Assembly (NCBI GenBank): GCA_003568945.1
Contig: BDIP01000068.1
Location: 1-34,233 of the forward strand
Source of the DNA: Kipferlia bialata
Lineage: Eukaryota
Length of the DNA: 34,233 bases
Direction: 5' to 3'
Both the position numbers and the translations under genes were made by a program. Under the pieces are notes generated by a model. That model saw only the letters and a program-made list of their open reading frames with translations. It did no database searches and was not told the DNA's origin. Below, in pieces: positions 103 to 34,113 of this stretch (its first letter is position 1; the number at the start of each line of letters is the position of its first letter).

Positions 103-3100
103 CACTGGTGTTGTGTCTGTCCTTGGCAGACTGTGCAACATGCCATGGCTGCAGGTACAAGTGTATATATCCACATGTATATATATAGATTTGTATATGT
201 CAAGATAATTGATCTGTCTCTTTGGGAGGATAGAGACATCAGCTGCTGCACATTTCTTATGATACTATATGTCCCATATATGTATGTGTATATATAAGTA
301 CACACTGATGTGTTCACTCATCGTAGGGCACAGGAGATGCCGATAGGAGTGGCACATCCTCCCCCTCTTCCACTAGTGGCAGCACTAGCCCACCTGAGTC
401 TGTGTCTAGCACTAGCACCAGCGAGACGCAGTCTGTCTCTGCTGTGGTTGAGTACCCACCTGTACCAATAGGGAGGGGGGATATTCTGAGACTGCTCGAT
501 GAGGGCAGGTAAGAGACATATATGCGTATGCTGTGTAGTTGTTCTCACCATGTAACCATATTATTCTGGGGAGTATATATATATTCTGAAACCTTGTGTA
601 ATCTGTATTATTACTAGTGTCCCGTTTTCTGAATATGGATGCACTCTAGGCCCCGTACCGCTGCCTCTGCTTATGTATATGTATGTTATATATTGTAAGA
701 TATTGGAAGTGTATAATGTATCTAATAATAATAGGCCCCATGCCGCAGCTCTTGCCTTCAGGGCATATGATAATATACACTGTGTTTTAGCCATGCTATT
801 GCGTTCATTGTATTATGTCAATGAGTACACTCACTATAGGCCCCATGCGGCTGCCCTTGCCTATAGGGTGAGACAGTATCAGGACAAGGATAGAAGAGAG
901 AGGGAGGAGGGGGAGGGAGGGGGAGACAACACTACGGAGAGTATCAAGGGAGCGAATGGAGAGAGAGAGAGTGAAGTAGTTGACCCGTCTGACCTCGCAC
1001 TCCTTGGCAGGATACTGTCAGCTGTGGACACACCCTCCTCTGCAGTTGATGCAGCACTGGGGTATCCCACACTGTCACAACAGGCCCAGGCACTGGGTGT
1101 GAGGTATACATTATAGTGTATTCTTATGTGTACATTCATTAGTGTAGTAACAGGCACAGGCACTCGGTGTCAGATAGAGATATTGATGTACTATGTACTC
1201 ATGGATATTTTCCTATATATGTATTCAGACAGTACTAGGTGGCATTTATTCCAAGGTATATATACATATTCCAACCCCAGGCTGCTGACCCCTGGCCTTG
1301 ACTCCCTCCCTGTTAATATGTTTATGTATATTACTACTAGAAAATACATAGATATGTGCATATTCTACCTGTTCTAACCCCAGGCTGCTGACCCTTGGCC
1401 TTGACTCCCTCCCCTCTGGCTGTGACCTGGTACCATCACTCACACAGTGGTTAGATAATGCCTTAGGTATAGAGCGTATGTATATATGTATACATTGAGT
1501 GTTTTTCAAATACTGTATTATGCCCGCACACTATCAGCACCCTTCAAAGGTCCCCTCTCTCGAAGTATAGACGTTATTCTTACACACCCTAGCCAAGCCT
1601 CACCCCACCCCAATACTTCTCCTACATACAATGATACTGATTCCCATATGTTTTGGTACACAAGCATTTAGGTATGCATCAGATAGACTGTATGCCTCAC
1701 CCTAGCCAAGCCACCCTCCCCCGATGCCAGTCCAGTCAAGAGTGAGGAGAAGGAGAGGGAGAGGGAGAGGGAGAGAGAGAGAGTGGGGAGGGCAATGTGT
1801 GTGATGGGTATCAATGGCATACCCGACACCTACTTGCTACCGGTACTTAGGTCTATCCTGAAACTACGCGATTCTAAGGACGATGACAGCAAGAAGCTAC
1901 GCGATGTCAAGGCTGCCCTGCCCCCATCCACTGTGGCGACAGCTGCATACCTCACACTGCTCAAGAAGAGGTATGACAATGTGTATATTGTGTGACATTC
2001 ATACACCACCTTTGCATTTCGTTAGATACACACTATCACTCCACTTTTTACAAGTAGAATTGGACTTCTATTGATACACTCTCTATATATACTAACCCCA
2101 GTTCCCCCTCCACCAGTGCTGCACTGAAGGCACTGGGCGTGGCAGCAGCAAGGTGAGGATATGTATACAATAGAGTATGCATATACACTATACTACATGT
2201 ACAGTATATGTTTATTATTATTGCACTGGGCGTGGCAGCAGCAAGGTAATAGAGTATATAGTAAAATCAGTGTCAATAATGAATAGTATACACGTATTAG
2301 TCTATTGGTGCCATGCATGCACTGAAGGCACTGGGCGTGGCAGCAGGAAGGTGAAGGATGCGTCGCAACTTGCCACTGGCAAGTGGATAGTATTCATCAA
2401 TATTATACTATCTAGATACATGTATTCATACTGACACTAACCCATCAGGGCAGGACAGCGTACTCGCACCCCTACACCCTCAACAGAGGAGGACACGTCC
2501 AAGGAACCAGAAGCATCCACCCCCTCTCCCTCTCCCTCCACACCCCCTGTGCCCAAGAGTCTGTGGCTGAGGGCAGTGCAGCTTGTATATACAAGGTGTG
2601 TGTAACAGTATTCATATATATATATACATATACATATATATATATGAGTGATTGTATATATGCGTTATGCCTAACAGTCTGTGGCTGAGGGCAGTGCAGC
2701 TAGTGTATACTAGGTATAGTATACCCTTACCCATATGGTTGTTCAAGGCCAGGATCGACGCAGTAACACCTTGCACTATCATACATAGAATGCATTTGTG
2801 TTATAGTATATGTTACTCTATGTGGATCACCATCCTTAACATCAGGTGGTCCTTCAAGGCCAGGATCGAGGCAGTACTTACCTATCATTATCATTAGTGT
2901 CTTGGCTAACTATGTATATATATAGTAGTAATCGTAGTATACAGTATATACTTACTTCTAGGTGGTCCTTCAAGGCCAGGATCGAGGCAGTGTGTCTGGA
3001 GTCACTGGACCTGACCTCATTCAAACCAGGTATATATACACTATTATAGTATATACTATATACTGTTTATTCTTTACACTTCCCAGCCAGGGATGTTACG

Positions 3101-5547
3101 ATCCTTCACTCATGGCTGCCACAGTACCATATCTATCATATATAGCACTCATCTTCAGACCACTCCGATGCCTTCCAGTCCACCCTGGACTCTCTCTCTC
3201 TCTCCCTGCCCTTTGAGATACCAAGTACACCCAGTGTACCTAGTATGCCCAACAAGGGTACACCTAGTCAGGGGCATAAGAGGGTATCGATGGGGCCTAG
3301 TCTGCAGCAGACACTGACATCTACACTGGCGGATGCAAAGGAGGTATGGATAGGTGGTACAGTACTATGTAGTATAATGTATAGTAAACATAGTGGTAGG
3401 GTGTGGTATAATAATATAATAATATAATAATATAATAATCCTAGTGTGATAAATTAGAGTCAGGCAAGCACTATCGAGCAACTCTGGCAGATGCCAAGGA
3501 GGTATAGGTGAAGGAGAATAATGTTCACATGTGTATATAGATAGATAGTGTGGCCCAAGGCCGGTGGACCTACTCTATTCTCTGTCTCTTAGATATTTGT
3601 GTTTATATATTGGTCTTCTCACTCTCTAGGCCGGTGGCACTGCCAAGGAGTTCATGGGTGCCCTGCTGATAGCACTCGAGAGGGCAAAGGGGAGGTATAG
3701 GAACTGAATGTATTTGTATATATATATACATATATATACTATTACATAGATTAGTATACATAGACATTTGTATGTATATGGAGAGGGCAAAGGGGAGGTA
3801 ATGTACCTGTGTATACTTAAGTGTATATAGTCATAACGCACCGTCCATATATATATGGATCTATATTACTTTATATTAGTGATTGTTGTACTCACTTTAC
3901 CTGGTCCTCCTTCGAGCGTGCCCTGCGTGTATAGCAGAGTAGTCTATATACAACATCTTACATGTGTATACCAATTGTGTATACCAATTCCAGTTGGGTA
4001 TCCTTCGAGCAGGCCCTGCTAGTGTTGCACACTGTACACATATATGATATATATACATATGTACACTTTCTCATATACTCACTTCAGTTGGGTATCCTTT
4101 GAGCAGGCCCTGCTAGTGCTACACACTGTACACCAACACGTGTCACAGATGGCAGAGACAGGGACACATAGGACTAGGAAGGGAAAGGCCCCTTCCCTCC
4201 CTAGTGTAAAGGTTAGTTCTTGCATATTAATTAGGTTTTGATTATGGGTGTGTATATGTATATATGTGTGTCACAGATGGCAGAGAGAGAGACACATAGG
4301 ACTAGGAAGGGCAAGGGGGGGAACACCTGCCCTTCCCAGTGTGAAGGTATCAGTGTTATACGATACCACATTAATCCTTCTTATCCTCACTGTCAATTTG
4401 AATGAATCCAATCAACTCTATTCTGGTACTGATAACTAACCCTCTAGCTAGACCCCTATGTGTCTGATGCCTGTAAGGACTGGGGCAGACAACAGGTGAC
4501 ACAGTGGCTGCACACATACAAGGCAGCAAAGGAAGCAGCTAGGAATAGGGGTCCAGCCGCCACTGATGGTACCTCTACACCCTCAATTGTTGCCGGCGTC
4601 CCTGTCCCTCTATCCTCCTCCGTCTGGCTGGATGCCCTTGTATCAGCCGTGGCAGACTCTGTTGACTGTCTGTTCTTCTCTCTCCCCTCTGCCTTGTGTG
4701 CACAGAGACCTAGGGTGCTGGCGCTCTCCCTCTCCTTGGCTGGGTCCTGTCTGCCATCGCCATCGCTGCAGGTAGTGTATGTATATGGAGGATATACACT
4801 GTATACCATTATATATAATATATGAATTCATATATCCTGCCTGCCATCACCATCCTTGCAGGTAGTGTATGCATAGTCACTTTACACAATACAATGTAGT
4901 GTATATGCGTTGTGCCTATAGTATATGTCGCTGGTTGTGTCAGCATCCTCACTCTTTGTGTTCTAGAGACAGTGCACTTCAGGCATGGCTAGACGATACA
5001 TATCCAATACTTTCTTTTAGTATATATATGGCTAACCTTAAGGGTTCTAGAGACAGTGTCCTACAGGCCTGGCTGGACCAGTCCACCATCAACACATTTT
5101 TTATGTATATATTTATTAGTCATTTATTATTCTACCTAGCCTCACCCTAAGGGAGCAAGAGATCAAGTCCTTCAGGCCTGGCTAGACCAGTCCACCCTCA
5201 ACACCCTGATAGAGACTGTCACAGAGGGGCAGACAAAGGGTAGACAGATGGTGAAGCCATCGTGCTTGGATCAGGTACAATGTATACATGTGTATATTCA
5301 TGTATATATGTATATATATATGTGTGTGTGTGTTATATTTACACTGTGACAGTGTATATATGTATACCCAACCCCAGGTTGAGTACTCGGCTCTCTCCCA
5401 GCATGTCTACAGATTGTACCTAAAATACATATATACCTATATATGTGGGCTTATCTTCAGGTTGAGTACTCTGCCGTCTCCCAGCATGTATCTAAGGTGG
5501 CATCTGCGGAGAGTCACAGGCACGGCACAAACCTAGGACTGTCGTAG
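103..5547 (+). CDS. Hypothetical multi-exon protein, 5'-partial; low-complexity and helical, function unknown
   Basis: GT-AG exons join in frame: TGVVSVLGRLCNMPWLQ|GTGDADRSG..LLDEGR|PHAAALAYRV..QALGVR|LLTLGLDSLP..|..VPKSLWLRAVQLVYTR|WSFKARIEAVC..|..ADAKE|AGGTAKEF..|SWVSFEQALL..|LDPYVSDAC..SLQ|GARDQVLQAWLDQ..|VEYSAVSQ..LGLS*. Stop TAG is at 5545-5547. One in-frame TAG at 3143-3145 is unresolved. No domain recognised. Confidence 0.65.
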
Positions 5548-5834
5548 ATACATGATGTGTCTTACATCAATGTTATAGGTTTAATCATATGGCTACTATA
5601 TTTTACAGCTTCTTCCCCAGTCAAATAGACAGGTTTCATTTGCATTAGCATCTGAACCCATAAAGAAATAGAGTATCATTTACAGATGGGAATGTCTAGC
5701 AACTCCAGCCTACACGCTTCTGCTGGTTTAGTCAAAAAACCTGCAAAAGGGGCTAGGCTGAGATAACATGACAAGACATCCTTTCAGTGGTAAAACACGA
5801 AGAACACCCCCTTACCGATCAGTATTCCAGCCGT

Positions 5835-14800: not shown

Positions 14801-16991
14801 AACAGAGCTCTGACAGAGCCTGCAGACATTACCGTCAGTGCCTCCGTACGGCTAGAAGACACTCCTTCCGATGTGGTTGCCTATAGTTCTGCCACTTGGG
14901 ACTCAACCTTCCAGGGATACGTCACAGGTGAAGCAATGTGTCTAAATATCCCAGTTATGTCTCTAACCATCAGATGCAGAGTCACCCTTGGTCGTCAAGG
15001 CATTCGGGCAATGCAAGTGTGTGTTCAGCATCAGCAGTGAGTCGTTGGTATCTAACGATGGTGAGGTGACTCTCTCATTATCCGTTGATGCCTCCGAACA
15101 AGATGAGCCAGACGCCCTTTCGCAACTACTTGACTTGGACGCTCTCTATCTCATTGGTGGTGGATTGGTTGTAAGCATGGTAGTCTGTATAGCTTGCCTT
15201 ATCTGCTGTAGGCGCGGGGAACAGACTACCAAGACTCGTCGTTTGAAACCTCTGAGATCCCCGGTAAAGGGTGGGGGAGACTTGGAGAACCAGGCCTCGG
15301 CACCTGATATTGGACCCGTTGGCCTGACTAATTATACCCCACAGACACCCACTGGTACCTCGTCTTTCGATATCGGCTGCTTAGTCGGTAGAACGGTGAG
15401 TGTGTGGCAATAGTAGTCCTTCTGTCCACCAGCTAACCCTCAGGACGTGATTCCGCTGGTCAAGCTCCAGATGGTGCATGAACTTGGACAGGGGGCATAC
15501 GGCAAGGTACTGTCTTCTGTCGGTCAGGCATAGACGCAAATGTAACTGATGGTTCCTTGTACATTGTACATTCAATAGTTACCCATATTTACTCCCCACC
15601 AGGTGTGGCTGGTCAAGTGGCGGTCTGAAAAGTTTGCCGTCAAGCTCTTTAGCAGGAGTGGCATGTCTCCTGCTCACATTAAGGTATCTCAATGAATCCG
15701 TATGCATTGAGTAGTATCCTTATAGATATATAGACCGGAACCGCTCTTTACTCCTGTGTCGAGTGTGTGATTTCACAGCCTCATTTCAGTACTGTATATA
15801 TACGTAGTATCTCATATTGCTGTTTTGCTTCACACCAGGGTGTTGTGGCAGAGTACGAGCAGACCAAGAAACTCTACTCCGCCTTCATCGTGGACGTCCA
15901 GTGTCTGGTCATGGACGCTGACAACATCGGCTTCATGATGCGGTATCTGAGTGGCGGGACCTTGCACGACGCTATTCACAAGTAAGTGCCCTTGTGCCCA
16001 GTAGTATATATTGCTCTCCCTGCTCTGCGGTTTCTATCACAGTCTCACGTCAGGCCTGGTGCTCCTATGTCGTGGGATCTGCGGTCCTCGTTGGCCTACC
16101 AGATAGCGAGGGGGTGCCAGTACCTCTACTCCGGGGACCCCCCTGTAGAGCACAGAGACCTCAAGCCTGCCAATGTAAGTGCTCTGCTTGTGTCTGTCGT
16201 TGTGTTGGAATACTTACAGTTTACGTTTATGGATACAAATTAGAACTCATCGTAGGTTCTGCTGGAGAGCGACGGTCTTCGGTGCCGCATCTCAGACTTT
16301 GGACAGAGTAAGGTGCACGACACGTTCAAGACTTCCACGCTATCTCCTGCCCAAGGGACACTCAGCTACATGGCCCCTGAGCTCTTCAACCTTAGGTATT
16401 CATCTACTATTCTATATACACAATGCATGTGAAGAGAGACTTGAAACCAATGCAGCCTTCACAGCGTTATGGATAGCATTATTCTTCATAGCAATCGATA
16501 GCTGTGAGCCCATTTCTTTCGCTAGTGACTATTAGTATCCAATACCTAAGCTTTCTGACACTCAGGTTCCACTACAGCGAGAAGACTGACGTGTGGAGCT
16601 TCGGTGCCATCCTGTGGGAGATGATCTCTGGATTCCTGCCTTTCCAGGAACAGAGTCCACTCAGAATTCCCTCTATCATATGCAGCGGCGGTGGCTTCCC
16701 ATTCACCGAGGTGACTCACTCTCTAGTAATTAATACATTGTATAGCTGAGACTTAACATACCCTACATATTGCCAGTCTAGATACGCATAATTTCTCAGT
16801 TAGATGTGCTGTGAGTAGTTAAGGGGAGCCTGTTTTCAACCTCATCCCAGGGCTGGATCCCTGTCGATGCCCCTACTGTTCTGGTCAGTGTGGCCCAGGC
16901 CTGTCTCAGCATGGATCCCAGAGAGAGGCCCACCTTCAATGAGATTGTCACTAGTCTCCTTGACATCGTGTCCAATGACTTTGATGAGTGA
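5835..16991 (+). CDS. Single-pass receptor-like kinase: signal peptide, FG-GAP repeats, multiple Ig/filamin-like repeats, TM helix, TKL-type kinase
   Basis: Signal peptide MPPLLTILALLCVLSLSLA. FG-GAP repeats VGHSVSVDGNWMAIGAPYEDGDNGN|VYIY and FGYSLSLSGTWLAVGAP. Repeated D-x-x-GN beta-sandwich motifs. TM ALYLIGGGLVVSMVVCIACLICC-RR (15141-15209). Kinase motifs across exons: LGQGAYGK|V, AVK, HRDLKPAN|V, DFG, GTLSYMAPE, DVWSFG, RPTF. Stop TGA 16989-16991. Confidence 0.9.
7648..7940 (+). repeat. Donor-side exon echoes: ATGTCGGAGGGGTGCAG|GTAC-like unit x4 (one exonic, three intronic)
   Basis: Copies near 7648, 7723, 7806 and 7907, with an (ACTGAT)n microsatellite between copies. Confidence 0.85.
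8817..8908. repeat. Intronic tandem duplication of about 49 bp
   Basis: TACTATGTATTTTGCAGTG.C.CATATGTGGAGTTGATCAGTA occurs twice. Confidence 0.9.
12585..12641 (+). other. Non-canonical GC-AG intron (57 nt)
   Basis: CAG|GCAAGT...ACTGACACCAG|GCC gives PFVAMLQ|AFDQFGNR. Paralogous repeats have GT-AG introns at the same position (LVK|VFDEHGR, VFK|AFNQFGD, YLK|VYDMYGNR). Read-through hits an in-frame TAG. Confidence 0.8.
15444..16991 (+). other. Protein kinase domain, TKL-like, predicted Ser/Thr specificity, catalytically intact
   Basis: Gly loop, AVK lysine, HRDLKPAN, DFG, GTLSYMAPE, DVWSFGAILWEM and C..DP..RPTF are all present after splicing. Confidence 0.9.
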
Positions 16992-18997: not shown

Positions 18998-19143
18998 CGG
19001 ACATGTTTGAACTGTAGTAGAGTCTCTACAAACTGCACTAAATTATCACATGTACCTCTCTTGTAGAGTCTATCCGAGTACTCAACCAGAATTTCTATCT
19101 ATCGATGTCTATTAGACACATACAGATATCTGCTCTATCCCCC

Positions 19144-22005
19144 TTAGAGAGTGACGATGACTGGTGGAAGCTCCACATCATCATAGTCCTCTCCATAGGA
19201 GGCGCCAAACACAAGCTCGACGTACCTCTTATCGGGGGTGGCCTGGGAGTGAGGAGTATGCACTGACACAGAGATGACTGTGAACACATACCACCTAGAC
19301 AGTATCCAGTCTTTGAGAGAAACATTGAGTCGGTAGAGTGTCGACATAACCATAAGACACATGCATCAATGCCATCCTCACCTTGAGAGCCTTCTTGAGG
19401 GCCTCGGCCAGGGGCAGGTTGATGATCTCCTTCATCTTCTGCTTCTTGAATGCATTGTACACGATGGAGGTGCCGCATGTCACCATGTCCACATCGCACT
19501 TGTAGCTGGGGTGAGGGCATGCAATATACAAAGACAACGCATCATGACACCATGTTGTATACATATATATATATATATAGCATCCATACCGTGTAGAGAC
19601 GTGGGTGACCAGCTCGCTGAGTGTCTTGGATGCCCCGTCTACAGTGATGGAGTCCCACACAGTGAACTCCTCCTCAGTAGAGGCAATGGTGGTCTGGGGT
19701 CAGGTGTACATTTTACAATTCTATATATAACAGTGAAACTGCTTCTGATACTGACACTCAGTAGAGTAGAGGTAATGGTGGTCTGGGGTCAGGGATACAT
19801 CTGTAAAGATATATTAATATATAGCAGTCAAACTGATACTGACACTCAGCAAAGGCAATGCTGGGCCAAGGTAAGCATTGTGTGGGAGATAGAGTTGTGT
19901 AGGTAGTGTACAGTACACACCCACCTTGTTGGGCTCTGCTGGCTCAGCTGCCTGGAAGATGGGGATGGCAAGGTTGAGGAACACCTGGGGGTGAGTGAAA
20001 GGGGAACAGCGACCACCTAACACTACAGTCACACATGGAAGTACATACCTGTCTGAGGTCTGAGATGGGGTGTGTGGAGAGAGTCTTGCACTGCTCCACA
20101 GCCACCAGCCCAACCACAGCAGCTGTGGTGGTGATCATGGCGGGGATGATGCGGCCGGCAACACGCTTGGACTCGGCCTGGGGTGAATAAATGCACAACT
20201 ATACAGACAATTCTGCAATACCAATTACGTATACATGTACTGACTATATGGATACAGTAGTAGTTGATGCCTCCCACCTTGGAGACAGTCTCGATCCTGT
20301 AGTTGCTCGCCCTGAGGTTGGCGCATGCGTGGATGAATGCAATGTGGTCGTTGGAGTCGTCGTCCTTCTCAAACTCATGGAGGAAGAGAGACTTGTGGCC
20401 TGGAGGTGAGGGAGGAGTCAGTATTATAGAGGTCATACGGAGATTGGACAATGTCTGGCTGGGAGCTTGGCCACGGCAATCTCGAACTCATTCTTACAGT
20501 ACACATAAGCATACAATGAATAGTATAATACACATGTGTATATACTATATATATAGATGGTATACCTGCCCTTGCTGGCAGCTTGGCCACAGCCATCTCA
20601 AACTCGTCTCCCATGGGTGTGTCGGCATCACCACCGGCAATGACATTGCCCTCCTCGTCCTCAATCTGGGCGTAAGGGAGATGTATATATGAATATATAT
20701 GTTTATGAATACAAGTATATACATACTATAATATGAAATATGACATTGCCCTCCTCGTCCTCAATCTAGGGTAAGGGGTTGGAAAAACAGATATAGACAC
20801 CCATAACTATTGGTACACATTGGTGTGATATGCTGATACTACTATTACATATTATGGCATTGCCCTCCTCGTCCTCAATCTGTGGTGAGGGGTTGATACA
20901 TTGATTGTTATATGCCATAAGTATACATATTGGCGTGATGCTATGGCATTGGCCTTCTCGTTCTCGTTATGGCAACAAACATATGTCAAAACCCACATAT
21001 ACATACAATCCCCCTACCTTAGTGGCGTGGTATGTGTATGGCTTGACTGTGATGGTGGGGATGAGTCTGTCCACATCGGCATGCACCGTCATGGGGTCCA
21101 TCTGGGGGGTTAAGGGAGAACAAAGTGAAACTGGATATATATATGAATATATAGGACTATAATTACTTCCCGAATAGTCATGGGGTCCATCTGAGGTTAG
21201 AGAGACAGAGTGAAACTGGATATATAGGATAATAGATACTATCCAAATAGTCATGGGGTCCATCTGACATAAGAGAGACAAAGTGAAACTGGATATATAG
21301 GATAATAGTTATTATCCGAATAGTCATGGGGTCCATCTGGGGGGTGAGACAAAATCAAAATGAAATTGATATATCTATATGGAGAGATCGGTGTGGTAAT
21401 AATTAGGTCATGGGGTCCATCTGGGGGGTGACTAATATGCACATGAATAGATTGATCATAGGAATATAAGTGTAAACTATATATATGTATATCATACCAG
21501 TATATACATGCAGAGTGTGGACCCACCTCAATGTTGAACATCTCGGCTCTGAGCCTGGCACCTGCCCTGACGAAGCCCATGCACAGGGGGTTCTGGGGGG
21601 TAAGATACATACAAAGCGAAGTATATATACATAGTACAAACTAATACAATCCAAATACATCCAAGTATGGGGACTACATACAGGTAAATGGCATATATAT
21701 GCCTACCTCCACGTCGAATGGGATCTCTACGGGTGGCCTCTTGGCACCAGTCCAGAAGAGAGCGCCTAAGGGTCAGAGCTACAAATACGGTAAAACATTG
21801 AAGGGGTAATATTGAAATAGGACATGTCTACCTGTTGTCTCGTCTCTCTTGTCGACTGGGAACAGGAGGAGTAGGGACCTCTGGGCATAGACAAACAGCT
21901 CGTGGTAGAGGTTCATGGCCCACTCGACACAGTCTGCAAAGGAGGACGGCTTGGAGGAGGGGGAGATGCAGTCGACAATGGTCTCAACCTGGGGGGGTGA
22001 ATAGT

Positions 22006-22044
<39 letters not shown>

Positions 22045-23083
22045 AAGAGAGGCAGACGACAATATGTCCTCACAAGTGTATACAGTGTGTACCTTAGTGG
22101 TCCTGGTGGATGTGTTGCTCCTGATGCTGTCGACAAAGTCCTCGTTGTTGAGGTAGGCATTCACAACCTGGCGTAAGTCTCAAACTATACGTAACACAAC
22201 TAAGTATCGAGGGTCAGTGTATCTATGGAAACATAACTAAATATCCTGTTAGGGTTGTATTACCATACCTCCGACTCGTTGTGGAAGAACCCCTCGAACC
22301 TGTCCCTGGCCCAGACCAGACAGTGGGTGATGTTGTTGGGGAAGTTGTGGATGAGGCAGGCAGGCTCCTCCTTCTCCTCTAGAAGTGAGTATATAAAGGG
22401 TGTAGAGGGGGAGAGAGAGAGAGAGAGAGGAAGAGAGTACGTACGGGGGTCTGGCTGGGCACCGTAGTTCTCGGTGATGTTGGGGAAGACAGGTGTGGTG
22501 TTGGCCTGGGGGCCTGGGGGTTAGTAACCGCAAGATATACTATCACGGATATCAGTGATACATACCAAGATCATGAGGATATAGATACATATACCACATG
22601 CCGTACCGAGTGTGCCGCTGTCGAGCATGGGGAGTCCGTGCCTGATGGCCTTCTCGTCACAGTACCTGGGGGGTGAGATACAAATAGCATGCGCAGTAAG
22701 AAACAATTGCATCGGATTCTTGTGATGGTACTTATACAGATAGCCTTCTCCTCACAGACGGGGGGGTTGAACATAGTCAACACATATACTAATACTTCAC
22801 AATAATATAAATGTATCATACCTCCTAGCGTTGACGTTGTCGAGGCCTGTCACGATGTAGGAGAGTGATGACCAGAAGGCATGGTCGAGGACATCCTCGG
22901 TCTCAGGGCACACCCTGGGGGTGAGGGTATTGATTGTGACATATATACAGCACATAAGCAGGAGGTGGCTATAGTGTACGATTAGAACTATACACAGGTA
23001 TATATATACCCCACCTGATGGCCATTGACTGGCAGTTGAACTCAGGGTTCATCCTGGAGACAGCACCAACAGCGGCCTCAGAC
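19144..23083 (-). CDS. UBA1: Ubiquitin-activating enzyme E1 (UBA1-like), C-terminal half only, about 17 exons
   Basis: [34 protein letters not shown], catalytic Cys in [90 protein letters not shown], and a UFD-like C-terminus ending [10 protein letters not shown]. Confidence 0.93.
20641..21430 (-). repeat. Two acceptor-side echo arrays in UBA1 introns (YAG|ATTGAGGACGAGGAGGGCAATG x3-4; CAG|ATGGACCCCATGAC x5)
   Basis: First array near 20641, 20741, 20856 and degenerate 20943. Second array near 21088, 21178, 21251, 21324 and 21408. Confidence 0.9.
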
Positions 23084-23166
23084 TGACAGTTAGAGAGAGA
23101 GAGAGAGTGTGTGTGGGATGGCAACGGAGCAACCAGAGCTGCCTCGGAACTCATAAAGTAGGAATA

Positions 23167-23191
23167 GGGGGGGGGGGGGGGGGGGGGGGGG
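23167..23191. repeat. Poly-G tract (25 nt) where UBA1 homology stops
   Basis: Directly visible homopolymer; sequence character changes across it. Confidence 0.95.
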
Positions 23192-23308
23192 AAGAGGCAG
23201 AAGTCAATGATGGATTCACCGCACTGGCAACTGACTGTGTGAGAGCAGTGAGCCATGTCAGTCAATCCGAGTTCTAATACTCCTAACATGTCTTGCCGAA
23301 ACAAAGAA

Positions 23309-23680
23309 CTACAACTCAGGTTTCTGCTCCTTCTGCTCCTTCTGCTCCTTCTGCTCCTTCTGCTCCTTCTGAAGTTCAGCGATCATACTATCCCAGCCCG
23401 TGGTGGCTAGCTCATTCCGGCTAGCTCTACTGTTCCACAGGAGGTATAGGTAATCCAGTGCTGCAGAAACAGCCACCGCCTCCGTAGCACCACGGAAAGT
23501 GCGTCCATCGTGGTGGAAGTGAGCGATATTTCCATGAAAGGCAGTAAAACTCACAACAGACCGAGTGGGATTATTGAACTCGGACGCGATCAGCAGGGCC
23601 ATGTTGCTCCTCTTCAACATCTTCCGCAGCTGGTCTTTGTCGGACTCAAACAACGCAGTGTGCTCCTGTCTTGTGACCAT
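23309..23680 (-). CDS. Intronless 123-aa orphan ORF with a C-terminal QKE repeat
   Basis: ATG-to-TAG ORF with coding-like composition and no TA microsatellites. The 9-bp repeat keeps the frame. No family recognised. Confidence 0.5.
   Translation of the reverse strand: MVTRQEHTALFESDKDQLRKMLKRSNMALLIASEFNNPTRSVVSFTAFHGNIAHFHHDGRTFRGATEAVAVSAALDYLYLLWNSRASRNELATTGWDSMIAELQKEQKEQKEQKEQKEQKPEL
23322..23371. repeat. 9-bp tandem repeat (TTCTGCTCC) x about 5.5, encoding QKE repeats on the minus strand
   Basis: Directly visible. Confidence 0.95.
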
Positions 23681-24204
23681 TGTGGTTCCAATGACTGGGT
23701 AAATAGAAGGTTGTTACTCACACAATGTGAGTTTTACTGTGTGGCTCAAGTTTTTGGACCCGTAATACTGTACTAAAAATAGAAATCAAAGGGTTTATCC
23801 TTAGGGTTCCGAGATGGCGGTTGGTACTATAACACTCACTACGTAACGCCATTTATCATTGTGGTCGAATCCGCCACTCAATGAAGCAGCTAAGATAGAA
23901 ATACAGCAAGAAATACTTGGTTCACAACATCATCCAACAAATACAGCTGAAAACACAAAAGACCGTAGGGCCAACCTCCCAATACGGCAACGCAACGTGT
24001 ACATAGCCGTATGTACATGTACATGCACATACCACATCACATTGCAACACAACCCCCTCCCTCTCTGCCTGGACAGCACCGAGAGAGGACTACTCTCCCC
24101 CTGCGACAACAGAGGGAGTATACCTACTACCTAACCATGAACTCTCTCTCTCTTTCTCTCCACTCATACACTCTCTCTCCCTCTCTCCCTCTCACTGTAC
24201 TGTC

Positions 24205-24676: not shown

Positions 24677-24908
24677 NNNNNNNNNNNNNNNNNNNNNNNN
24701 NNNNNNNNNNNNNNNNNNNNNNNNNNNNNNNNNNNNNNNNNNNNNNNNNNNNNNNNNNNNNNNNNNNNNNNNNNNNNNNNNNNNNNNNNNNNNNNNNNNN
24801 NNNNNNNNNNNNNNNNNNNNNNNNNNNNNNNNNNNNNNNNNNNNNNNNNNNNNNNNNNNNNNNNNNNNNNNNNNNNNNNNNNNNNNNNNNNNNNNNNNNN
24901 NNNNNNNN
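24677..24908. other. Assembly gap (232 N) flanked by G/C homopolymer-rich sequence
   Basis: Run of N. It must hide the 5' ends of two divergent genes. Confidence 1.
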
Positions 24909-25004: not shown

Positions 25005-28000
25005 GCTGGCAGCTCACCCAGCTCCCAGAGTACGCAGAGGCCAAGGTGGTCAGAACAAGGTAGACAGTGGGTATGTACTCTCTCTCCCTCTCTCCCTCTC
25101 ACTCTCTCTCTCTATATATATATCACTTGGTATATAATATATATATATAATGATGGGGTCCGCTGCTGAAGTTGTGTGCTCACTCTCTCACTCTCTCTCT
25201 ACGCAGGTTTATGTATGTAACATCCATATACATACAATAACATGCAAAGATCTGGATGTCATCTGCTCTGCCTATGAGTCTCTCTCTCTCTCTCTGTGTA
25301 TACATTCATATTTCTCTCACTTCACATACTGACCCTAGGGACCAGGATGTCATCTCCGCTGCCACCATTGTGGTTGATGTCGGTGGGGTATATGACCACG
25401 AAGCAAGGAGGTAAGAGAAGTGGGAGTATCCATGTACACTAACTATTGACTGTAGCTTTAATATACTATACATATTGTGGTTGGTGTGGGTGGGGTATAT
25501 GACCACGAGGCCAGGAGGTAAGGATACTGATACACATTCAGTTCATTATTATCATACTTATCATATACTTATATACTTACTCATGTGTATACCTCTTTAT
25601 GACCACGAGGCCAGGAGGTGAGTATCTCAATACTTCCATGGGTATTTAGTATTATTGGCATATCATTCATTTTTGACCACTACTAGTAGGCAACAACCAT
25701 GTTTTACTATATACTGGATAGATGTACTCACCCTGTAGGTATGACCACCACATGAAGACATGCAACGAGACCATGCCCGGATACGACATCAAGCTGAGGT
25801 ATCCGGTATGCACTACATATACATATACTACATCATCTACTGATGGATATATATATATCATGTGTCTGGATACGACATCAAGCTGAGGTACGTATTGGTG
25901 TAGTGAATAGTACAATGGAGTGTTAGTGATCCAATCCCTCACACTGTAGCAGCGCCGGCATGGTGTACAAGCACTATGGCCACCAGATCATTGACATACT
26001 GTGTGCATACATGGACACACCTGTCACACTCACAGAGACACAGAGGGAGTGGGTATACCAGACGGTGTATAAGGTACTAGTATGTTATACTACTACCAGT
26101 TAAAATACACGTATACTGTTGGTGAGTGAGTGGGTGTATCAGAAAGTGTATAAGGTCTATATGTAGACTCTTTATGTAGTAAGGTATTAAGATTAATATT
26201 CCATGTATATACTATATAATTAGAGAAATGTATGCTATATTGCGTATCAACCGTATTGACCCCAGGGCTATGTCATGGCCTGTGACGGACAGGACACGGG
26301 GGAGGCAAAGGTATATATAGACAGATAGGATGTACATGTACAATTTTAAGTATAAGAGTTATGCATATCGGGGTATATATACTCCGGACACTGGTGAGGC
26401 AAATGTTCAGAGAGATATGTAGATATGTCAGGTATATATATTCAAGACACCGGAGGGAGAGGTATGGGAGATCGTTTATGTAGGATAAAACGATATTCTT
26501 ACACTAGGTTGTGAATGCTGATGGGACAGAGGATTGTCGGAAAGTGAACTTGTGCCTTACAGTATATACTCTTTGTGTGTATATTAGTTTTCATATTCTA
26601 ACACTAGGTTTTGAATGCCGATGGGACTGAGGATGGTCTGACAGCATATTTGTATTTTCAGTGTGTATGTTATATTAGAGGGAGTACACTTATGCTAGGT
26701 TGTGAATGCCGATGGGACCGAGGATGGACTGACTGTGAGATACAGTGACAGCACGGGGATGGGGTCCACAATAGGTATGTATCATGTTATATATACATAT
26801 TGTACTTCATACATATTCAGGACTATACAATGGTAGAACGGGGATGGGATGTACAATAGGTACACACTTGGCATATACCAAATACACGGTACATCCAGCA
26901 ACCACTCGATGCATTAATATATACATTATACACTGATTCTGACCTCCAGCCAACCTGAGGCCCCAGTGGAATGAGTCATTCTCATTCGACAGCAGGTGTG
27001 GATGTACTGTTGTATTGGCACCAGTGTCCAAATATCCTCTCATAATGTATTAGTTAAAATATATCATACTTATGGAGACATTCTCGTTCGACAGCAGGTT
27101 TGTATACAGTACCGGTATATCTGTGTAGTGTCGGTATTTTTGTTTGTGTACCATTATTACCTCGGTTCCCTGCTGTGGCGTAGCCCTATTCCACATGAAT
27201 GTGGTGTACAATCATTGTATGTGTCATATAGTCATTACCATTAATGTTTAGTATTTATGTATATGCCCTCACCCTCTAGGTTCCCCGAGGCCATGACCAC
27301 CGTTATACGTATGCAGTGTACTTATAGTATATATGAACGTTCCTTGCACATTAGTGTTCATTACTTACTTCAGGTTCCCCGAGGCCATGGCCACAGCCGG
27401 TGCACACTTCAAGGCACATGTTACGCGGTAAGAGATATATAACATAGAATACAGGATGTGCATTCGGTATCGTTGTACAACACATCCATAGAATATCAAG
27501 TGTGAACAGTACCACTGATATGGGCACATTACTAGTGACAGGTTGTCTCTTAGACTCTCCTCTAGTGTGTCGTGCTTACCCCCAGCGTTGTGAAGCACCG
27601 TCTCCCAGCCTATGACATAGTCAAGACAGCCATGGACAACAGGTATATATGTGTATACATTGATGGAAGTATATTTATATGTAGGTAGTAAATGATATAT
27701 ATATATGTTGCCACAATACATATGACAATGCCAAGACAGCCATAGACAACAGGTATATTCATATACACTGGTATTCATTGATGTATATCCGATGGACCAC
27801 AGGTGGGATACTGCTAGGGGGGTAGTTAGGTATAGAAGAAAAGATACAGTATTCCTTGACACCTAGGCGCACCACCCTGCCCTGGGGTGAGGGCCGTGTG
27901 CTTGTGATAGACACTGGGGTGCCAGCTGACAGGATGGTCTACGAGATGGAGGAGGAGAAGGGTATGATGATATATATATATATATATATATATACTAGTA

Positions 28001-28927
28001 TGTATACGTATGTAGTTATGTCAATGGTCTACGAGATGGAGGAGGAGAAGGGTATGAAGTAGTATATATACTAGTATATATACATACTAATATGTGTATG
28101 TATGTGTAGATGTGTCTGTTGACAGGATGGTCTACGAGATGGAGGGTATGTGGTACATATTGATACACACTACTCCATCTGACTGTCACAGGGCTTGTGG
28201 TGTACATTGTGATGCTGGGAGTACGTCTCAATTATGTGTTGACGTATGTGTGCATATACCACATGCCTTGTCCTGTACAATGTGATGCCTCGCTATGTAT
28301 ATGTGTATCTCTTAGTGTACTGCATCCATCTAACCCACAGGCCTTGTGCTGTACATTGTGATGCCCAGGTCTGATGGTACATGGGGGGTCAAGGCAGTCA
28401 ACAGAGAGGGGTCCATGGCCCTCAGGTATAGTGTATTAGTGAAAATATGTAAAACCTCAGACCATGCAATTCTATCTCTCTGTATGTATTTCAATGGCAT
28501 CTCACCCCCTGCCCCTGCCCCTGCCTGTTGGCTAGTATATATCTACTATGAGTTACTATATAATACTATTAGATAGCTAGTATTACTGACTATTCATTGG
28601 CCGTAGTAGGCTCCTGCCCTCTGCCTAGTTGCACTGACTTACTCCTATATATATGAGTATTATTGTATATAGCGCTGTGTCATACAAGTCTGACCCCAGG
28701 AAGCCCCTGCCCTCTGCGTGGGGTGGTCTGAGACACCAGGACCTGGATAAGGCAACAGGTGAATATGTATATATATACTAATACGTTGAATATGGAATAT
28801 ATGTATGCCTTACCCCCCAGGCCTGACTGGGTGTGTGTTTGTGCACAAGGCCTTGTTCACAGGTGCCGCCAGTGACAGGCAGACGGCACTGGACATGGCC
28901 AGAATGGCATACGAGAACATGGAGTAG
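25005..28927 (+). CDS. MYG1: MYG1 (UPF0160) exonuclease; first exon missing in the gap
   Basis: WQLTQLPEYAEAKVVRTR|DQDVISAATIVVDVGGVYDHEARR|YDHH..IKLS|SAGMVYKHYG, FPEAM, VLYIVMPRSDGTWGVKAV, RKPLPSAWGGLR, GCVFVHKALFTG..ALDMARMA. TAG at 28925-28927. Confidence 0.93.
26500..26740 (+). repeat. Acceptor-side echo array in MYG1 (CTAG|GTTGTGAATGCYGATGGGACNGAGGAT-like x3)
   Basis: Copies start at 26508, 26608 and 26699 (the true exon). Confidence 0.9.
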
Positions 28928-29082
28928 AAAAATAGAAAGATGTATCATGATCGTGCTACATATTATAGGTATAGCTTTTGGATATACTGGCACTACAGAT
29001 CGCCAGAACTCACCAATGCCTCTGATATCCAACCACCCTCATCAACAGGGATGTATCAACGCAACGTTTAATTGAATAGATT

Positions 29083-30209
29083 CTATTCAGTTTCTTCCGT
29101 TTTTCTCATCCCCTCCACCATCTTCCTCACTAGTGCCTCTGATATCCTGCCACCCTCCCTGGCCACACACTCAGAGGACAGCTGGGCAGCAAGTCTAGGG
29201 ATGAGAATAGTACTATACACATATATAGTACATTGTACATATACACTCCCTGGCCACACACTCAGAGAAGAGCCGAGCAGTCTAGAGAAAGTAGGGTAAT
29301 AGACAATATATAATGGTTTATACACCCCACCTTGGGCCAGGACACCCCATCTCAGCTGATATAAATATATGAATATACCTGTGTCTGTGTATTCTATATA
29401 TACGGTATTCTGTACAATATACCTTGGGTCTGGGCACCCCATCTCAGCTGCCAGTCTAGAGGCATGCAGCCTCATGTGGCCCTGGGGGTGAGGGGTGTAT
29501 ATTTGAAATAGTAGTTATCAAGGCAGACAAAATTATGAAGAACACCTCAGAGCTATCTTGACTGATAAAACGATGCATATAATACTTGCTGATTACCTGG
29601 CTAATACCCTTTCCAGCCAGTGCGAGTACAGCAGACATGTTCTGGGACAGTATATACACACATTCGGTATAAAGACATATGTAGTACTTGCTGATTACCT
29701 GACTTATGCCTTTACCCGCTAAGGCTAGTACCGCTGCCATGTTCTGGGCCAGACCATATACAAACATATATCATACACTCAATAACACAGTACATATATG
29801 AATCATATATACCTGACTGATACCCTTGCCAGCTAGGGCCAGCACTGCAGACATGTTCTGGGCCAGACCAACAGCTGCCATGACACGGCCTAGGATAGAG
29901 GACCTAGGGGTTAGAGATAAGACTAAAAATAGATATATGTGTGTTAATACTATTACAAGTATGAAATGTCATCAGCTGCCATGACACGGCCTAGGATGCA
30001 TAATCCAATAGTCAGATGGAAGAGATACTTGCTCATGTATTTTAACTATTCCCAAACTACTATATTTGTGAGACCAAGGATAGAGGGGGATATGAGTAAA
30101 AGTACTCAAACTCATACTAATACCAACACGTGTCCCTGGATCCCCCCAAAGTATGGGTCATGGTCACTGTCTACAATATTGATGCATGATCATTATATAT
30201 ACAAATACC

Positions 30210-30243
<34 letters not shown>

Positions 30244-33200
30244 TGTGCATACCTGGACGCCCCATCAAAGTATGTCCCATCCTCTCCGTCCACTAGCATG
30301 GACAGGGCACAGGCAGCACGGGCATGTCTAAAGGGTTAGAGAGTTTATAAGTACATACTATGTACTATCACCACTATACATATAGTTGTATGATGCAGAA
30401 GTGTATATCATAGACATAGCACAGGCATTATATGGGCAGAAAGAGAGATATACCTAGTTGTGAGCCCCCCCACCACCCCTATAGGCACAGCCACCCTACA
30501 TCTGACACGGAGGCCATATACATCAGGGCCTGGGGGTGAGGGGGGTATGATACATAACACATATCTCAGAAAACAATACACCTGATACGGAGGGCATGGG
30601 TGTCAGGGCCTAGGGGTGAGTATATTCTACATATATATATATATATATATATATAGTTATATCGTGGGTGGCAGTGTCAGTATCAATAGAGGAGAGGGGT
30701 CAGGGGCCAGGGTAACTGGATGGTGTGTGATGCAATACGCATCAGCACGCACCCACCCTGGTCTGGCATGGGCACATACTTACGGCACAGGCTATCTAAT
30801 ACAAACCCTGAAACATACTTACATATATCATCATACTATAATCACCCACCTTGTCCTGGCATAGGCACTCTCTTCACCCAGGAGAGTGGTCTAACCTGTC
30901 CATCCTTGCAGGATAGAGTGTGGTTGCATGCCTCGATGGCCCTGGTGTCCTGACAATGTTAGTATACCTAAATGACCAATTCTAGTGGACTTATGCTTAT
31001 ACGCTCTCTCTTAGATATGTATCAATGGAAATGTGTATATACAGTAGTTGCCTCGATGGCCCTAGTGTCCTGATAGTGTAAGGAAACTCATTGATCACAC
31101 ATGTAGGTCTCTAGGTGTCCTACCAGATTTCAATAATCATCACGATCTGTGTATGTATATATACACCATATCAGCATACCTGACCAGTGGCAAGGGCCAC
31201 AGCAGACACACCGTTCATGATACCCTGGGGGTAAGGACAAAGGTAAACTACAAGCAACGCAATAAACATACAATAGCTACCTTGTTATGCGTGACTGCCC
31301 TTGCTGGGTGCCTAACCCCTAATGAGTACACCCTCTCCACCCTATCCAACAGTGCAATGGCAGAGGGCATGTCACTACACCTCTTGCACTCAATTAGAGA
31401 GGCAGGGGTGAGGAGACACTCGGCCACAGCTAACCTGGCATCAGTGCAATTCTACACGATTGATGTGTAGTATTTACGCGATAGATATACCTTGGCCCAG
31501 CTAGATGGACTAAGCTGGCATTCCCTGTTGCCCCCTTCCCTATGCCAGGTGTGAAGGGACCTGCCTCAGCAGCAGAAGGGGGGGCAAGGTTGGACACAAT
31601 TCTAGGAGGGTTAGGAAGTACACGAATTTGGATCGCGTAGCTTACACAGCTACTACATGTGTGCATATATACCATAAGAATATGTGAATGTCTATACCTG
31701 GCCACTGCCTGTGTCTCTGGGAACAGACCCATGCAGTCTATAGGTATAAAAATATATGTATGTACTAACAATACACATGTACATATATAGATACCATACC
31801 TAGCCACTGCCTGTGTCCCTGGGAACACACCCTCCAACAGGTGTGTATATATATGTATATATGCCATATATACATTCAGTATATGAATATATATATACAC
31901 ACGGTACCTGGCCACTGCCTGTGTCCCTGAGAACATACCCTCCAACAGAGGGGCACAGGCCTCGGCAACGCCTAAAGTAAGGGAGGAGAGTATACTTAGT
32001 ATATTTAAAGAGAACTGCAATATACGAGAATGGTATATAATACAGGGGGGGACAGGCCTCGGCAACACCTACACTCAGCAATACGTTCTAGAAAGCATAA
32101 GTCAAGCAACTGGAGGAGAGAAATGTACTATGTCCTAATATGGGGGCACAGGCCTCGGCCACACCTAAAGTAAGGGAGGTAAGTATATGTATCAGTTGAT
32201 AGTAGAACTCAGGATACTATCATATGTGAGGAGGGTATAGTATGGGGGCACAGGCCTCGGCAACGCCTGAGGTCAGAGATATGGGTGGAGGATATACATG
32301 ACACATAGATAACCATGTATCGGACCAAAGAGGTGTCATACACTCTCTAATATGGAGTATAGTCGTATTCTTCAGTTCCTGCACCTGCTGCTATGTTGGC
32401 ACCCATTGCATCACAGACATCAATGTCGAGTGAGACCAGTATGTACATGGGTACATCCACAGACTCGGGTACAGTGGCATCTGTGTCTATATCAGTGTCA
32501 CCACCCACATCCTCTGGAGCATCTGTGTCTATACCCTCCATACCCTCCATACCCTCTGGACACCACTCTGTGTCTGGGGGTAGAAGGGTGCCCCTGACCC
32601 GCACCAGACCTCCACCCTGCAGAATGAGAGAATGGTTGGCATATATACACAAGAGCTTTTACACAGTAATCACATAAGTCAATGTATAGTAGGTAACCAC
32701 CACCATGTACAGTGAGACAGTGTATGCATAGAGTAGTATACTAACCCTCTCATACAATCTGGGATGCATCCTCCTGCACACCCTGTCCATGTCTACATAT
32801 ACATATGTATGTATATGTATGCATAGAGGAGTACATATCAGTATACTAACCCTTTCATATAACCTTGTATGCATTCTTCTGCACACCCTGTCCATGTCTG
32901 CATATGATGTGTCAAGGGTATCTGACACAGACTCAGGGGTCAAGGGGGTGCTGGGTGGGGACACTAGCTGCACCATGCCAGTCACAAGGGTGGGGCCTAT
33001 TAATTAGTCATCAATATAGATAGACATAGACACAAGTGGATCACTATAGTCATATGGATTAATACTGCTCTTTGCCAGTCGCAAGGGTGGGACTGGGGCT
33101 AACACATAAGTCAATATCTCACATATTGAGATATGTATCCCAGTCTTCTAAACCCAATTATAGCTATTAGTTCTCTTGCTGCACCACGCCAGGGTGACAC

Positions 33201-34113
33201 CTCAGAGGAAAGCACAAACCAACATATCGTGTGGCATACCTGCCGCTGTTCTGAACCCACCCTCTACATATCCCCTTAATACTGTGATATACACATGCTC
33301 AAGTGACCCTATAAATATCACTAATGCATACTCTAAAGTAGAGTAGAACACAATAGAAAATATATATACCTGCCGCTGTTCTGAACCCCCCCTCGACCCT
33401 AGCTATCTTGGCCCCCAGTGAACAGGCAGCCACTACGCTGGGTTCCTCAGTGACCATGGGCACAACAAGCTAGTGTTACATTATTACTTATATATATACA
33501 TATATAGAGACAGAGAGAGAGAGAGAGTATAGAAGTAGCTACAATGCTGGGTTCCTCAGTGACCATGGGCACCACTAGCTACAGGGTAAGGGAGCCACTG
33601 GTGCAGTAGACTTGATATATACAAGAGTAGATTCCAGTAGTTTTCAAAGACTTCTTTCAGTGGATAATATATATGTGTCAATCTCTACAACTTTCCACCC
33701 TGAGGAAATATATATGTTCGGTAAGGGAGCCCACTGGTGCAGCTGCAATACTGATAGAATACAAGATTAACACAGCATTAATTGCCATGTGTAGTAGTTT
33801 GTTCAGAGTATACTCTGTGTAATGCTAAATATGTGTCAGTGTACATCTTACTTTCACCCTGAGACAACATAGAGATGATGACACACTGATACTTATCTAT
33901 ATGTAAAATGAGAGTATTCATACCTCGTTTCCATCCACTATGAAGTTTGGTGCCACTCCCATCGAAAGGAAGAAAGACAAACATATACATATATTCATAC
34001 TGTATAAAGATGTGGTAAGAAACAAGAATACATAACATTACCTCATTTCCATCCACTATAAAGTTTGGTGCCACCCCCATTGGAAGGGAGAAGGTGCCAA
34101 TCACATTCTCAAC
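29083..34113 (-). CDS. mvaA: Class II (bacterial/archaeal-type) HMG-CoA reductase, 5'-partial
   Basis: VENVIGTFSLPMGVAPNF, VPMVTEEPSVVAA, DAMGAN, RIVSNL, RAVTHNK|GIMNGVSAVALATGQ|DTRAIEA, PIGVVGG, AVGLAQN..LALAGKGISQ|GHMRLH (catalytic His). TAG at 29083-29085. Confidence 0.93.
29597..29860 (-). repeat. Donor-side echo array in HMGR (QNM.AVLALAGKGISQ|GT x3)
   Basis: Exon end 29813-29860; copies 29699-29755 and 29597-29644. Confidence 0.95.
31697..32275 (-). repeat. 64-nt HMGR exon (31908-31971) flanked by three acceptor echoes and two donor echoes
   Basis: AG|GYGTKGCCGAGGCCTGT near 32070, 32165 and 32268; ACACAGGCAGTGGCYAG|GTA near 31800 and 31698. Confidence 0.9.

Follow-up and report, generated by a model that had tools for sequence, protein, structure and literature searches.

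The introns of the HMG-CoA reductase (HMGR) gene of Kipferlia bialata, a free-living protist, contain partial copies of the neighbouring exon, some of which largely keep the amino acid sequence while third codon positions have diverged. How can a segment that lies inside an intron come to differ from its parent almost only at silent sites? The initial annotation of this locus held that such copies 'were or are read as protein', and put forward four candidate mechanisms: (a) silent cassettes swapped into the exon, (b) a treadmill that pushes old exon ends into the intron, (c) capture of fragments from divergent haplotypes and (d) template switching at the level of RNA. Here we analyse a window of 34,233 nt, meaning the whole stretch of K. 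bialata DNA under study, and our census of exon-end copies is confined to these 34 kb. According to part of its genome paper, the K. bialata draft was assembled with SPAdes from short reads, and the genome is probably diploid and has 124,912 GT-AG introns (PMC5874029); repeated exon ends go unmentioned in parts 1-3 of 6 of that paper. The Kipferlia spliceosome is reported, again in part of the source, to be reduced, with 87 of 174 proteins (PMC6679479).

Results

Gene models in the window

Four genes were modelled by hand on the criteria of GT-AG introns and open frames, and a long kinase gene at 5.7-17 kb was left out:

103..5549, + strand: unnamed gene, hand model without RNA check, 676-codon open frame; 16 exon-end copies
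19143..23082, - strand: ubiquitin-activating enzyme E1 (UBA1) gene, 3' part; 11 copies
25005..28930, + strand: MYG1-family gene (family from Pfam); 16 copies
29083..34113, - strand: HMGR gene, 14 modelled exons, 5' end undefined; 18 exon-end copies in introns

The translation of a 77-residue exon returned one match in a protein search, a Kipferlia bialata protein named HMG-CoA reductase. The hand model of UBA1 and the annotated protein agree at 525 of 525 residues, and for HMGR 424 of 432 annotated residues match. The annotated HMGR protein (P0001) counts a 5' copy at 30580-30609 (- strand) as an exon (ALTPMPSVSG), which the RNA contig described below skips; it also cuts the true exon at 30850-30949 short and starts at a later ATG than the hand model, with 12 residues of the exon ending at 32851 missing. 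Exon-end copies such as that at 30580-30609 thus mislead gene prediction in practice.

The UBA1 model starts in mid-protein, beside a long stretch of C near 23170-23190. Just upstream of it, at 23309-23713 (- strand), is an unrelated open frame of 134 codons that contains an EQK repeat, and a join or an insertion in the region 23150-23960 is possible. A scaffold gap of 232 nt of N occupies 24677-24908 between two G/C homopolymer tracts, 4.7 kb from the copies that raised the question.

Two recoded copies of an HMGR exon end

The features of the focal locus are as follows:

29813..29903, - strand: live HMGR exon of 91 nt, parent of the copies; AG/GT flanks, open model, RNA contig without differences, Pfam PF00368
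29699..29756, - strand: near 3' copy of the exon end, 114 nt downstream; intact GT
29597..29650, - strand: far 3' copy of the exon end, 216 nt downstream; intact GT
29679..29698, - strand: intron start behind the near copy, the same at 18 of 20 nt as that behind the far copy and unlike the live exon's
29577..29596, - strand: intron start behind the far copy, the same at 18 of 20 nt as that behind the near copy
29482..29812, - strand: intron of 331 nt holding both copies, removed whole (RNA contig joint 29480>29812, CT..AC)
29970..29997, - strand: 5' copy of the live exon, upstream of it (offsets 7-35), from the intron copy census
29423..29481, - strand: next live HMGR exon, with the GHMRLH motif; RNA contig and hand model
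32746..32790, - strand: second strongly silent-biased HMGR copy, with five silent codon changes, T>P and a homologous intron start

When the codon comparison was repeated, the far copy at 29597-29644 again showed 8 differences from the exon end in 48 nt, all of them silent, to which the census added one A>S replacement at the inner edge (29645-29650). The nine silent codon changes and single TCT>GCA (S>A) of the near copy at 29699-29755 were likewise reproduced. Both copies are followed by GTAATCAGCAAGTA, as had been noticed, and their first 20 intron nucleotides are identical at 18 positions. The live exon's own intron opens differently, with GTATATATG..., and the common flank therefore ties the two copies to each other and not to the exon. 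Between near and far copy the shared core shows 10 silent changes to 1 replacement, and five codons of the trio formed by exon and copies are found in three different synonymous states, which implies that the lineages of both copies themselves changed silently, under constraint.

The initial annotation had also found no acceptor with a matching in-frame donor. One such option does exist in register, from an exon-internal donor (AAGG/GTATC) to an AAG acceptor, a non-YAG site, 11 nt before the donor of the near copy; it is unused in the RNA contig. We further observe a 104-codon stop-free frame at 29456-29770 (- strand) that passes through both focal copies, with RNA support absent in the contig, and that the flank common to the two copies translates as VISKYY in each, with TAC/TAT differences.

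The copies in DNA and RNA contigs

Contigs from two runs of one sample were aligned on 28900-31790 only, which confines the RNA check to HMGR without its 5' part. In DNA run X1, a Logan contig with a depth of 411 covers 28900-30202, where it is letter-identical to the window and has no gaps or joints; X1 is possibly the source of this DNA and hence not an independent sample. The longest exact word common to the three copies is 19 nt, too short for a mis-join by a de Bruijn assembler. Together the identity of the X1 contig and the shortness of the shared words speak against the artefact that had been feared, namely mis-stitched haplotypes, and no joint of the kind expected of collapsed chimeras between exon and copy is listed for that contig.

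Run X2 is a guessed RNA run, chosen because its contig has GT-AG joints. This contig, of 1,590 nt at a depth of 10.7, has eight CT..AC joints and joins the live HMGR exons while omitting the copies across 28900-31790, rare isoforms not being visible in contigs. The focal copies have no RNA cover in it, since the contig joins across them. It had been suggested that mRNAs might carry letters specific to the copies; at this depth, where rare forms are invisible, the contig skips both copies and shows the parent's letters only. No variant letters were seen at the locus in DNA or RNA contigs, which represent one sample and drop rare variants.

Exon-end copies are frequent, regularly spaced and anchored at splice sites

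When 54 introns were compared, blind to reading frame, with the exon on either side, 60 copies were found, and a 61st (32746-32790), dropped by the complexity filter, was added by hand. This last copy is included in the 91:86 ratio and in the homologue-residue, two-class-fit and period figures given below, and is absent from the three-way and subset counts and from the simulation with detection built in. With all 61 copies counted, 33 of the 54 introns (61%) of the four genes hold copies; introns are longer by about 87 nt for each copy they contain, and the copies have a period of 99 ± 16 nt.

5' copies sit upstream of their parent exon and 3' copies downstream. The donor is reached by 23 of 26 downstream copies and the acceptor by 31 of 34 upstream copies, so that 54 of 60 extend to an exon edge; 44 retain GT or AG, and none of the 60 is a copy of a whole exon. 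For these 44, identity to the parent is 90% in the exon part, whereas the intron flank is related to the parent's in 6 and unrelated in 38, and homology usually stops 2-5 nt from the exon edge, GT/AG counted in. Repeats made of intron alone are rare (7, with about 2.5 expected by chance) compared with the 61 derived from exons. Three units with related flanks are identical at 59 of 63 flank nucleotides, these flanks having been selected as similar, and differ at most silent sites. A branch-like YTNAC is found at 15 of 22 copy acceptors against 42 of 566 background AGs.

Where an exon has copies on both sides, these tend to meet. Five of eight such exons have inner ends no more than 6 nt apart, where 0.9 would be expected, and in none of the eight do 5' and 3' copies overlap by more than 4 nt. 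At the focal exon the inner end of the 5' copy at 29970-29997 meets the start of the near copy (offset 33) with a 2-nt overlap. The 6-nt threshold was picked after looking at the data, and the p value varies with it (0.08 at 3 nt, 0.016 at 4, 1e-4 at 6, 0.002 at 10 and 0.012 at 15).

Several ways of making use of the copies were considered and rejected. In-frame retention of whole units finds no place, because periods are not enriched for multiples of three (19 of 60) and a stop codon stands in the parent's intron frame. Intron gain of the type proposed by Rogers would find an in-register GT/AG option in 2 of 60 copies, and these two lie in HMGR introns that are spliced out whole in the RNA contig. 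Use as mutually exclusive or cassette exons is at odds with the lack of whole-exon copies (0 of 60) and with the RNA contig, which joins across the focal copies.

Other repeats in the window differ in kind. The UBA1 intron at 21177-21420 (- strand) holds four 14-nt acceptor-side copies, three with related flanks, at a period of 73-89 nt, and is a young, classical mirage-like array. At 5770-16990 (+ strand) lies the long gene with many short introns that ends in a protein kinase domain (Pfam); it has almost no exon-end copies, with one family at 7646-7938, and copy density thus differs strongly among neighbouring genes. An intron-only tandem duplicate of about 49 nt at 8816-8914 (+ strand; 41 of 50 identical) indicates that simple duplications arise away from exon ends too. 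In the 572-nt HMGR intron, the region 33560-33860 (- strand) contains an acceptor-region duplicate without AG and two similar CTCAG/GGTG starts; these repeated pieces match no modelled exon and are possibly the remains of a lost exon.

A minority of copies is silent-biased beyond neutral decay

The null against which the copies were set consists of one protected live exon and one neutral copy, and itself doubles silent differences. All 61 copies together carry 91 silent against 86 replacement codons (51% silent), while the silent share under the null was 30-36% in simulation and 33-36% ± 4-5% with the detection rule built in, with a maximum of 0.505 in 450 runs. Stop codons are absent from the copies, where 3.8 are expected at matched divergence (P ~0.02), and differences fall on the three codon positions in the proportion 43:43:120. 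A pS of at least 0.4 with a pN of at most 0.09 is seen in 10 of 61 copies, spread over all four genes, against an expectation of 2.5-3.3, or about 1 with detection built in. The pattern of the two focal copies arose at best in 6 and 3 of 20,000 runs over six simulated ages in which only the live exon was protected, which, corrected for the choice among 61 copies, becomes ~0.02 and ~0.01. A single neutral duplication of the present exon cannot account for the two focal copies; the observation made on them is confirmed, and the pair is real and beyond chance.

The pair is also the extreme of the window. Without it the silent share is 69 of 152 (45%), and a likelihood ratio test gives p = 0.002 against a null ratio of 2.0 and only 0.035 against 2.3. 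Several subsets look neutral: acceptor-side copies (29:49 silent to replacement), copies without an intact GT/AG (20:43, against 66:42 in those with one) and the copy-specific changes in non-focal three-way sets (8 silent to 24 replacement, the neutral expectation), in which far copies have 20 unique changes and near copies 12. A two-class fit assigns 65% of copies to a neutral class and the other 35% to one whose pS/pN is near 12. Most copies are therefore ordinary decaying duplicates, about two-thirds fitting plain decay, and a minority, the focal pair foremost, are not.

Other signals were weak or absent. The lack of correlation between pS and pN (rho -0.09), significant in first tests, is only about 1.5 SD from the null once detection is simulated and is not relied on here. 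Third positions of the copies show no drift towards A/T (34:34), the replacements do not differ from the null in BLOSUM conservativeness (p 0.05-0.4), and base-specific hypermutation was rejected, the rate of difference at fourfold sites being similar for all four bases.

Consensus residues and the search for a donor allele

The S>A of the near copy gives the family-consensus alanine, present in 111 of 119 homologues and lacking from the live exon, and the T>P of the copy at 32746-32790 is likewise the consensus residue (83 of 119). With D>G and M>L (each 57 of 119), four HMGR copies carry a commonest family residue that is absent from the live exon (4 of 26 replacements). Such residues can instead reflect later change in the live exon.

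Protein searches turned up neither a second allele nor a paralogue from Kipferlia, and the clusters of HMGR and of UBA1 have one member each. Among proteins of 237-756 residues there was no Kipferlia HMGR paralogue, the next best match being at 36%. A degenerate pattern of the exon end had 0 matches in metagenome contigs, and a search for HMGR-protein loci over 3 of 64 parts gave at least 80 loci at 29-35% identity, with no Kipferlia relative among the matches listed.

Discussion

Origin of the exon-end copies

Short tandem duplications that span splice sites account for the geometry of the copies, and splicing passes over them, as shown for 28900-31790. The shared breakpoints suggest breaks inside exons whose ends were extended on a template and rejoined. 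The silent-only class calls for divergence while coding, and as nothing points to present use of the copies, a working allele that had diverged is their simplest source. We therefore favour the reading that the copies are tandem products of break repair, that the silent-only differences derive from deeply diverged working alleles of a putative donor, and that the copies are now silent fossils; we judge the balance for and against it to be about even. As to the claim that the copies 'were or are read as protein', the first half survives, in that the silent changes would have arisen while each version was read as protein, and current use is unsupported. Of the four candidate mechanisms, (c), capture from divergent haplotypes, combined with (b), the treadmill, fits best.

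According to this reading, a break inside an exon would be extended on the homologue or the sister, through the splice site and into the intron (~100 nt), and the extended end would then be joined out of register to the other broken end. The old exon half would be pushed into the intron, so that 5' and 3' copies meet at one breakpoint. Splicing would take the site beside the complete exon, by analogy with amphioxus mirages and the human CBS and F7 genes; boundary events would on that account be tolerated, as whole-exon duplicates would not. In about a third of cases the exon-derived part would come from a diverged allele, either at birth or by later gene conversion, presumably limited to the exon, where homology persists. 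Later overwriting fits the focal pair better, given that the intron starts agree at 18 of 20 nt while 10 codons differ silently, and it is also favoured for the three units with near-identical flanks (59 of 63 nt) and diverged silent sites. The copies would decay afterwards.

A broader version of the reading, which we offer tentatively and would sooner expect to need revision than to stand as it is, is a genome-wide treadmill of exon replacement, in which a Dmc1-only, NHEJ-free repair inserts exon segments of diverged alleles at exon breaks, old exon halves are pushed into introns, introns grow in steps of ~100 nt and fossil alleles are kept. Rad51A is missing from all Fornicata examined, which have two paralogues of Dmc1, and NHEJ is absent from metamonads, according to part of the text of one comparative study (PMC8516963), and Dmc1-type residues allow repair from templates at least 20% diverged in yeast, according to part of another (PMC6719624). 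By analogy, this set of repair genes and the mismatch tolerance of Dmc1 make copying from a diverged allele plausible.

The weak point of the diverged-allele reading is that three mutually diverged versions at pS ~0.6 need very deep population structure. A donor allele was not seen in the X1 contig, the protein clusters, the metagenome contigs or the locus matches listed. Fast slippage in TA-rich introns could also erase flank homology without any capture.

Alternative explanations

The strongest rival is that these are ordinary mirages, identical duplicates that decay neutrally beside a live exon that changes only silently, with the focal pair a lucky extreme. The layout equals that of amphioxus mirages, about 65% of copies fall in the neutral class of the two-class fit, and the non-focal copy branches (8 silent to 24 replacement), with more unique changes in far than in near copies (20 against 12), behave as plain decay predicts. 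We nevertheless think this unlikely: the window-wide silent share is 51% rather than 33-36% and stop codons are absent, the focal pattern is reached at best in 6 and 3 of 20,000 runs, and the two copies differ from each other by 10:1. The silent rate of the live exon would have to be many times the neutral rate. This rival also leaves the shared breakpoints unexplained.

Alternatively, the copies may still be used, through rare micro-exon or alternative first exon transcripts, RNA template switching or DNA cassettes, with selection keeping the residues. In silent-cassette conversion systems of the antigenic-variation type, variants of the expressed locus carry cassette-derived tracts. The stronger silent bias of copies with an intact GT/AG (66:42 against 20:43) agrees with use, but younger age alone accounts for their intact splice sites. 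The excess of YTNAC at copy acceptors (15 of 22 against 42 of 566) and the 104-codon frame through both focal copies, with spacings in multiples of three, would fit as well, and conversion from a duplicate into the live exon has been proposed for CBS in part of the text of one report (PMC2630376). Current use is nevertheless improbable, because both copies are left out of the RNA contig and no letter specific to them appears in it, no collapsing DNA joint is listed, an in-register GT/AG option is found in just 2 of 60 copies, periods are not enriched for multiples of three (19 of 60), and frequent swapping should homogenise silent sites and not saturate them. The single RNA contig, at a depth where rare forms are invisible, gives no support to mechanisms (a), silent cassettes in current use, and (d), RNA template switching.

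The exon parts might instead have been overwritten or supplied by RNA or cDNA, a paralogue or the gene of a sister species, and not by chromosomal alleles. Copying from RNA would account for the end of homology at the splice site, mostly 2-5 nt from the exon edge with GT/AG included, and the scarcity of intron-only repeats (7, about 2.5 by chance, against 61 exon-derived) points the same way. We see little chance that this is the answer, since copy acceptors retain intron-side branch motifs that a spliced template lacks, an unsystematic look noticed no copy across a spliced exon-exon junction, and no Kipferlia HMGR paralogue was found among proteins of 237-756 residues (next best match 36%). 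Tandem stitching of haplotypes or strains is conceivable in a short-read SPAdes draft of a probably diploid genome (PMC5874029, as described in part of that paper), the more so as X1 is possibly the source of this DNA. Its probability is very slight given a read contig that was assembled separately and has the same sequence over 1.3 kb at normal depth, exact shared words of at most 19 nt in the trio, ~100-nt spacing without gaps and three versions at one site.

If the diverged-allele reading is right, one genome records several extinct or absent alleles per exon, and outcrossing and deep diversity in fornicates become measurable from a single assembly, in a group where sex is hard to observe. 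It would also provide a countable mechanism for intron growth in an intron-rich relative of the nearly intron-free Giardia, and would tie the absence of Rad51A and of NHEJ, both lost, to a visible mark in the genome. Should the treadmill hold, introns would keep a readable record of alleles no longer in the strain.

Comparison with known systems

The initial annotation knew of 'no described system like this', which is overstated, as duplications of exon boundaries that splicing ignores are known from amphioxus mirages, CBS 844ins68 and F7. A literature search, with most subscription papers and supplements outside it, gave no report of such copies in Kipferlia, of silent-biased mirages or of shared breakpoints.

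Human CBS c.[833C; 844_845ins68] is a 68-bp duplicate of an intron/exon junction in which the site by the complete exon is spliced; the inserted and displaced copies differ in allele (833T versus 833C), and conversion from the duplicate was proposed (PMC2630376, seen in part). The CBS case is one polymorphism, whose displaced copy carries one difference, a harmful one, whereas the Kipferlia copies are pervasive and repeated, with many silent differences. In the 37-bp VNTR of human F7 intron 7 the most upstream donor is chosen and the downstream donor copies are silent (PMC1557585); as far as the available part of that paper goes, this array is homogeneous, with identical pseudo-donors and no recoded coding segments, in contrast to the recoded copies of Kipferlia. 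The Rogers model of intron gain via a short tandem genomic duplication within a gene (PMC4974935, PMC3087553), as set out in parts of these papers, leaves exon-like sequence in the intron as in Kipferlia, but requires an AG/GT inside the duplicate, with both copies making the new intron, for which Kipferlia has an in-register option in 2 of 60 copies.

Closest are the mirages of amphioxus, described in the accessible portions of two papers for Adh3, the globins BflGb6 and BflGb9, TnC and PGBD5 (PMC3087553, PMC3902484), together with partial exons in VCBP3 introns (PMC2632668, likewise in part). There, as in Kipferlia, tandem duplications over the 5' or 3' exon-intron boundary, often with an intact AG or GT, leave splicing undisturbed, and several units of 10-160 bp may lie at one boundary. 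Amphioxus mirages are minisatellite-like over their whole length, with 81-100% identity in BflGb6 and concerted evolution. Mirage-type duplications are further marked by copy numbers that vary between haplotypes or cells; for Kipferlia no variant is listed in the contigs of the one sample. Unlike this, the intron part in Kipferlia is unrelated to the parent's in 38 of 44 copies, and partly similar between the two focal copies (18 of 20 nt); copies are found in 61% of modelled introns at a narrow period of 99 ± 16 nt, with shared 5' and 3' breakpoints. A subset of the Kipferlia copies is near-saturated at silent sites with hardly any replacements, a silent bias that goes unreported for mirages in those portions. 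The Kipferlia copies thus work like mirages but lack their similarity over the whole unit, and what is newly seen here is the sharing of 5' and 3' breakpoints (5 of 8 exons), the mostly unrelated intron flanks (38 of 44) and the silent-biased class.
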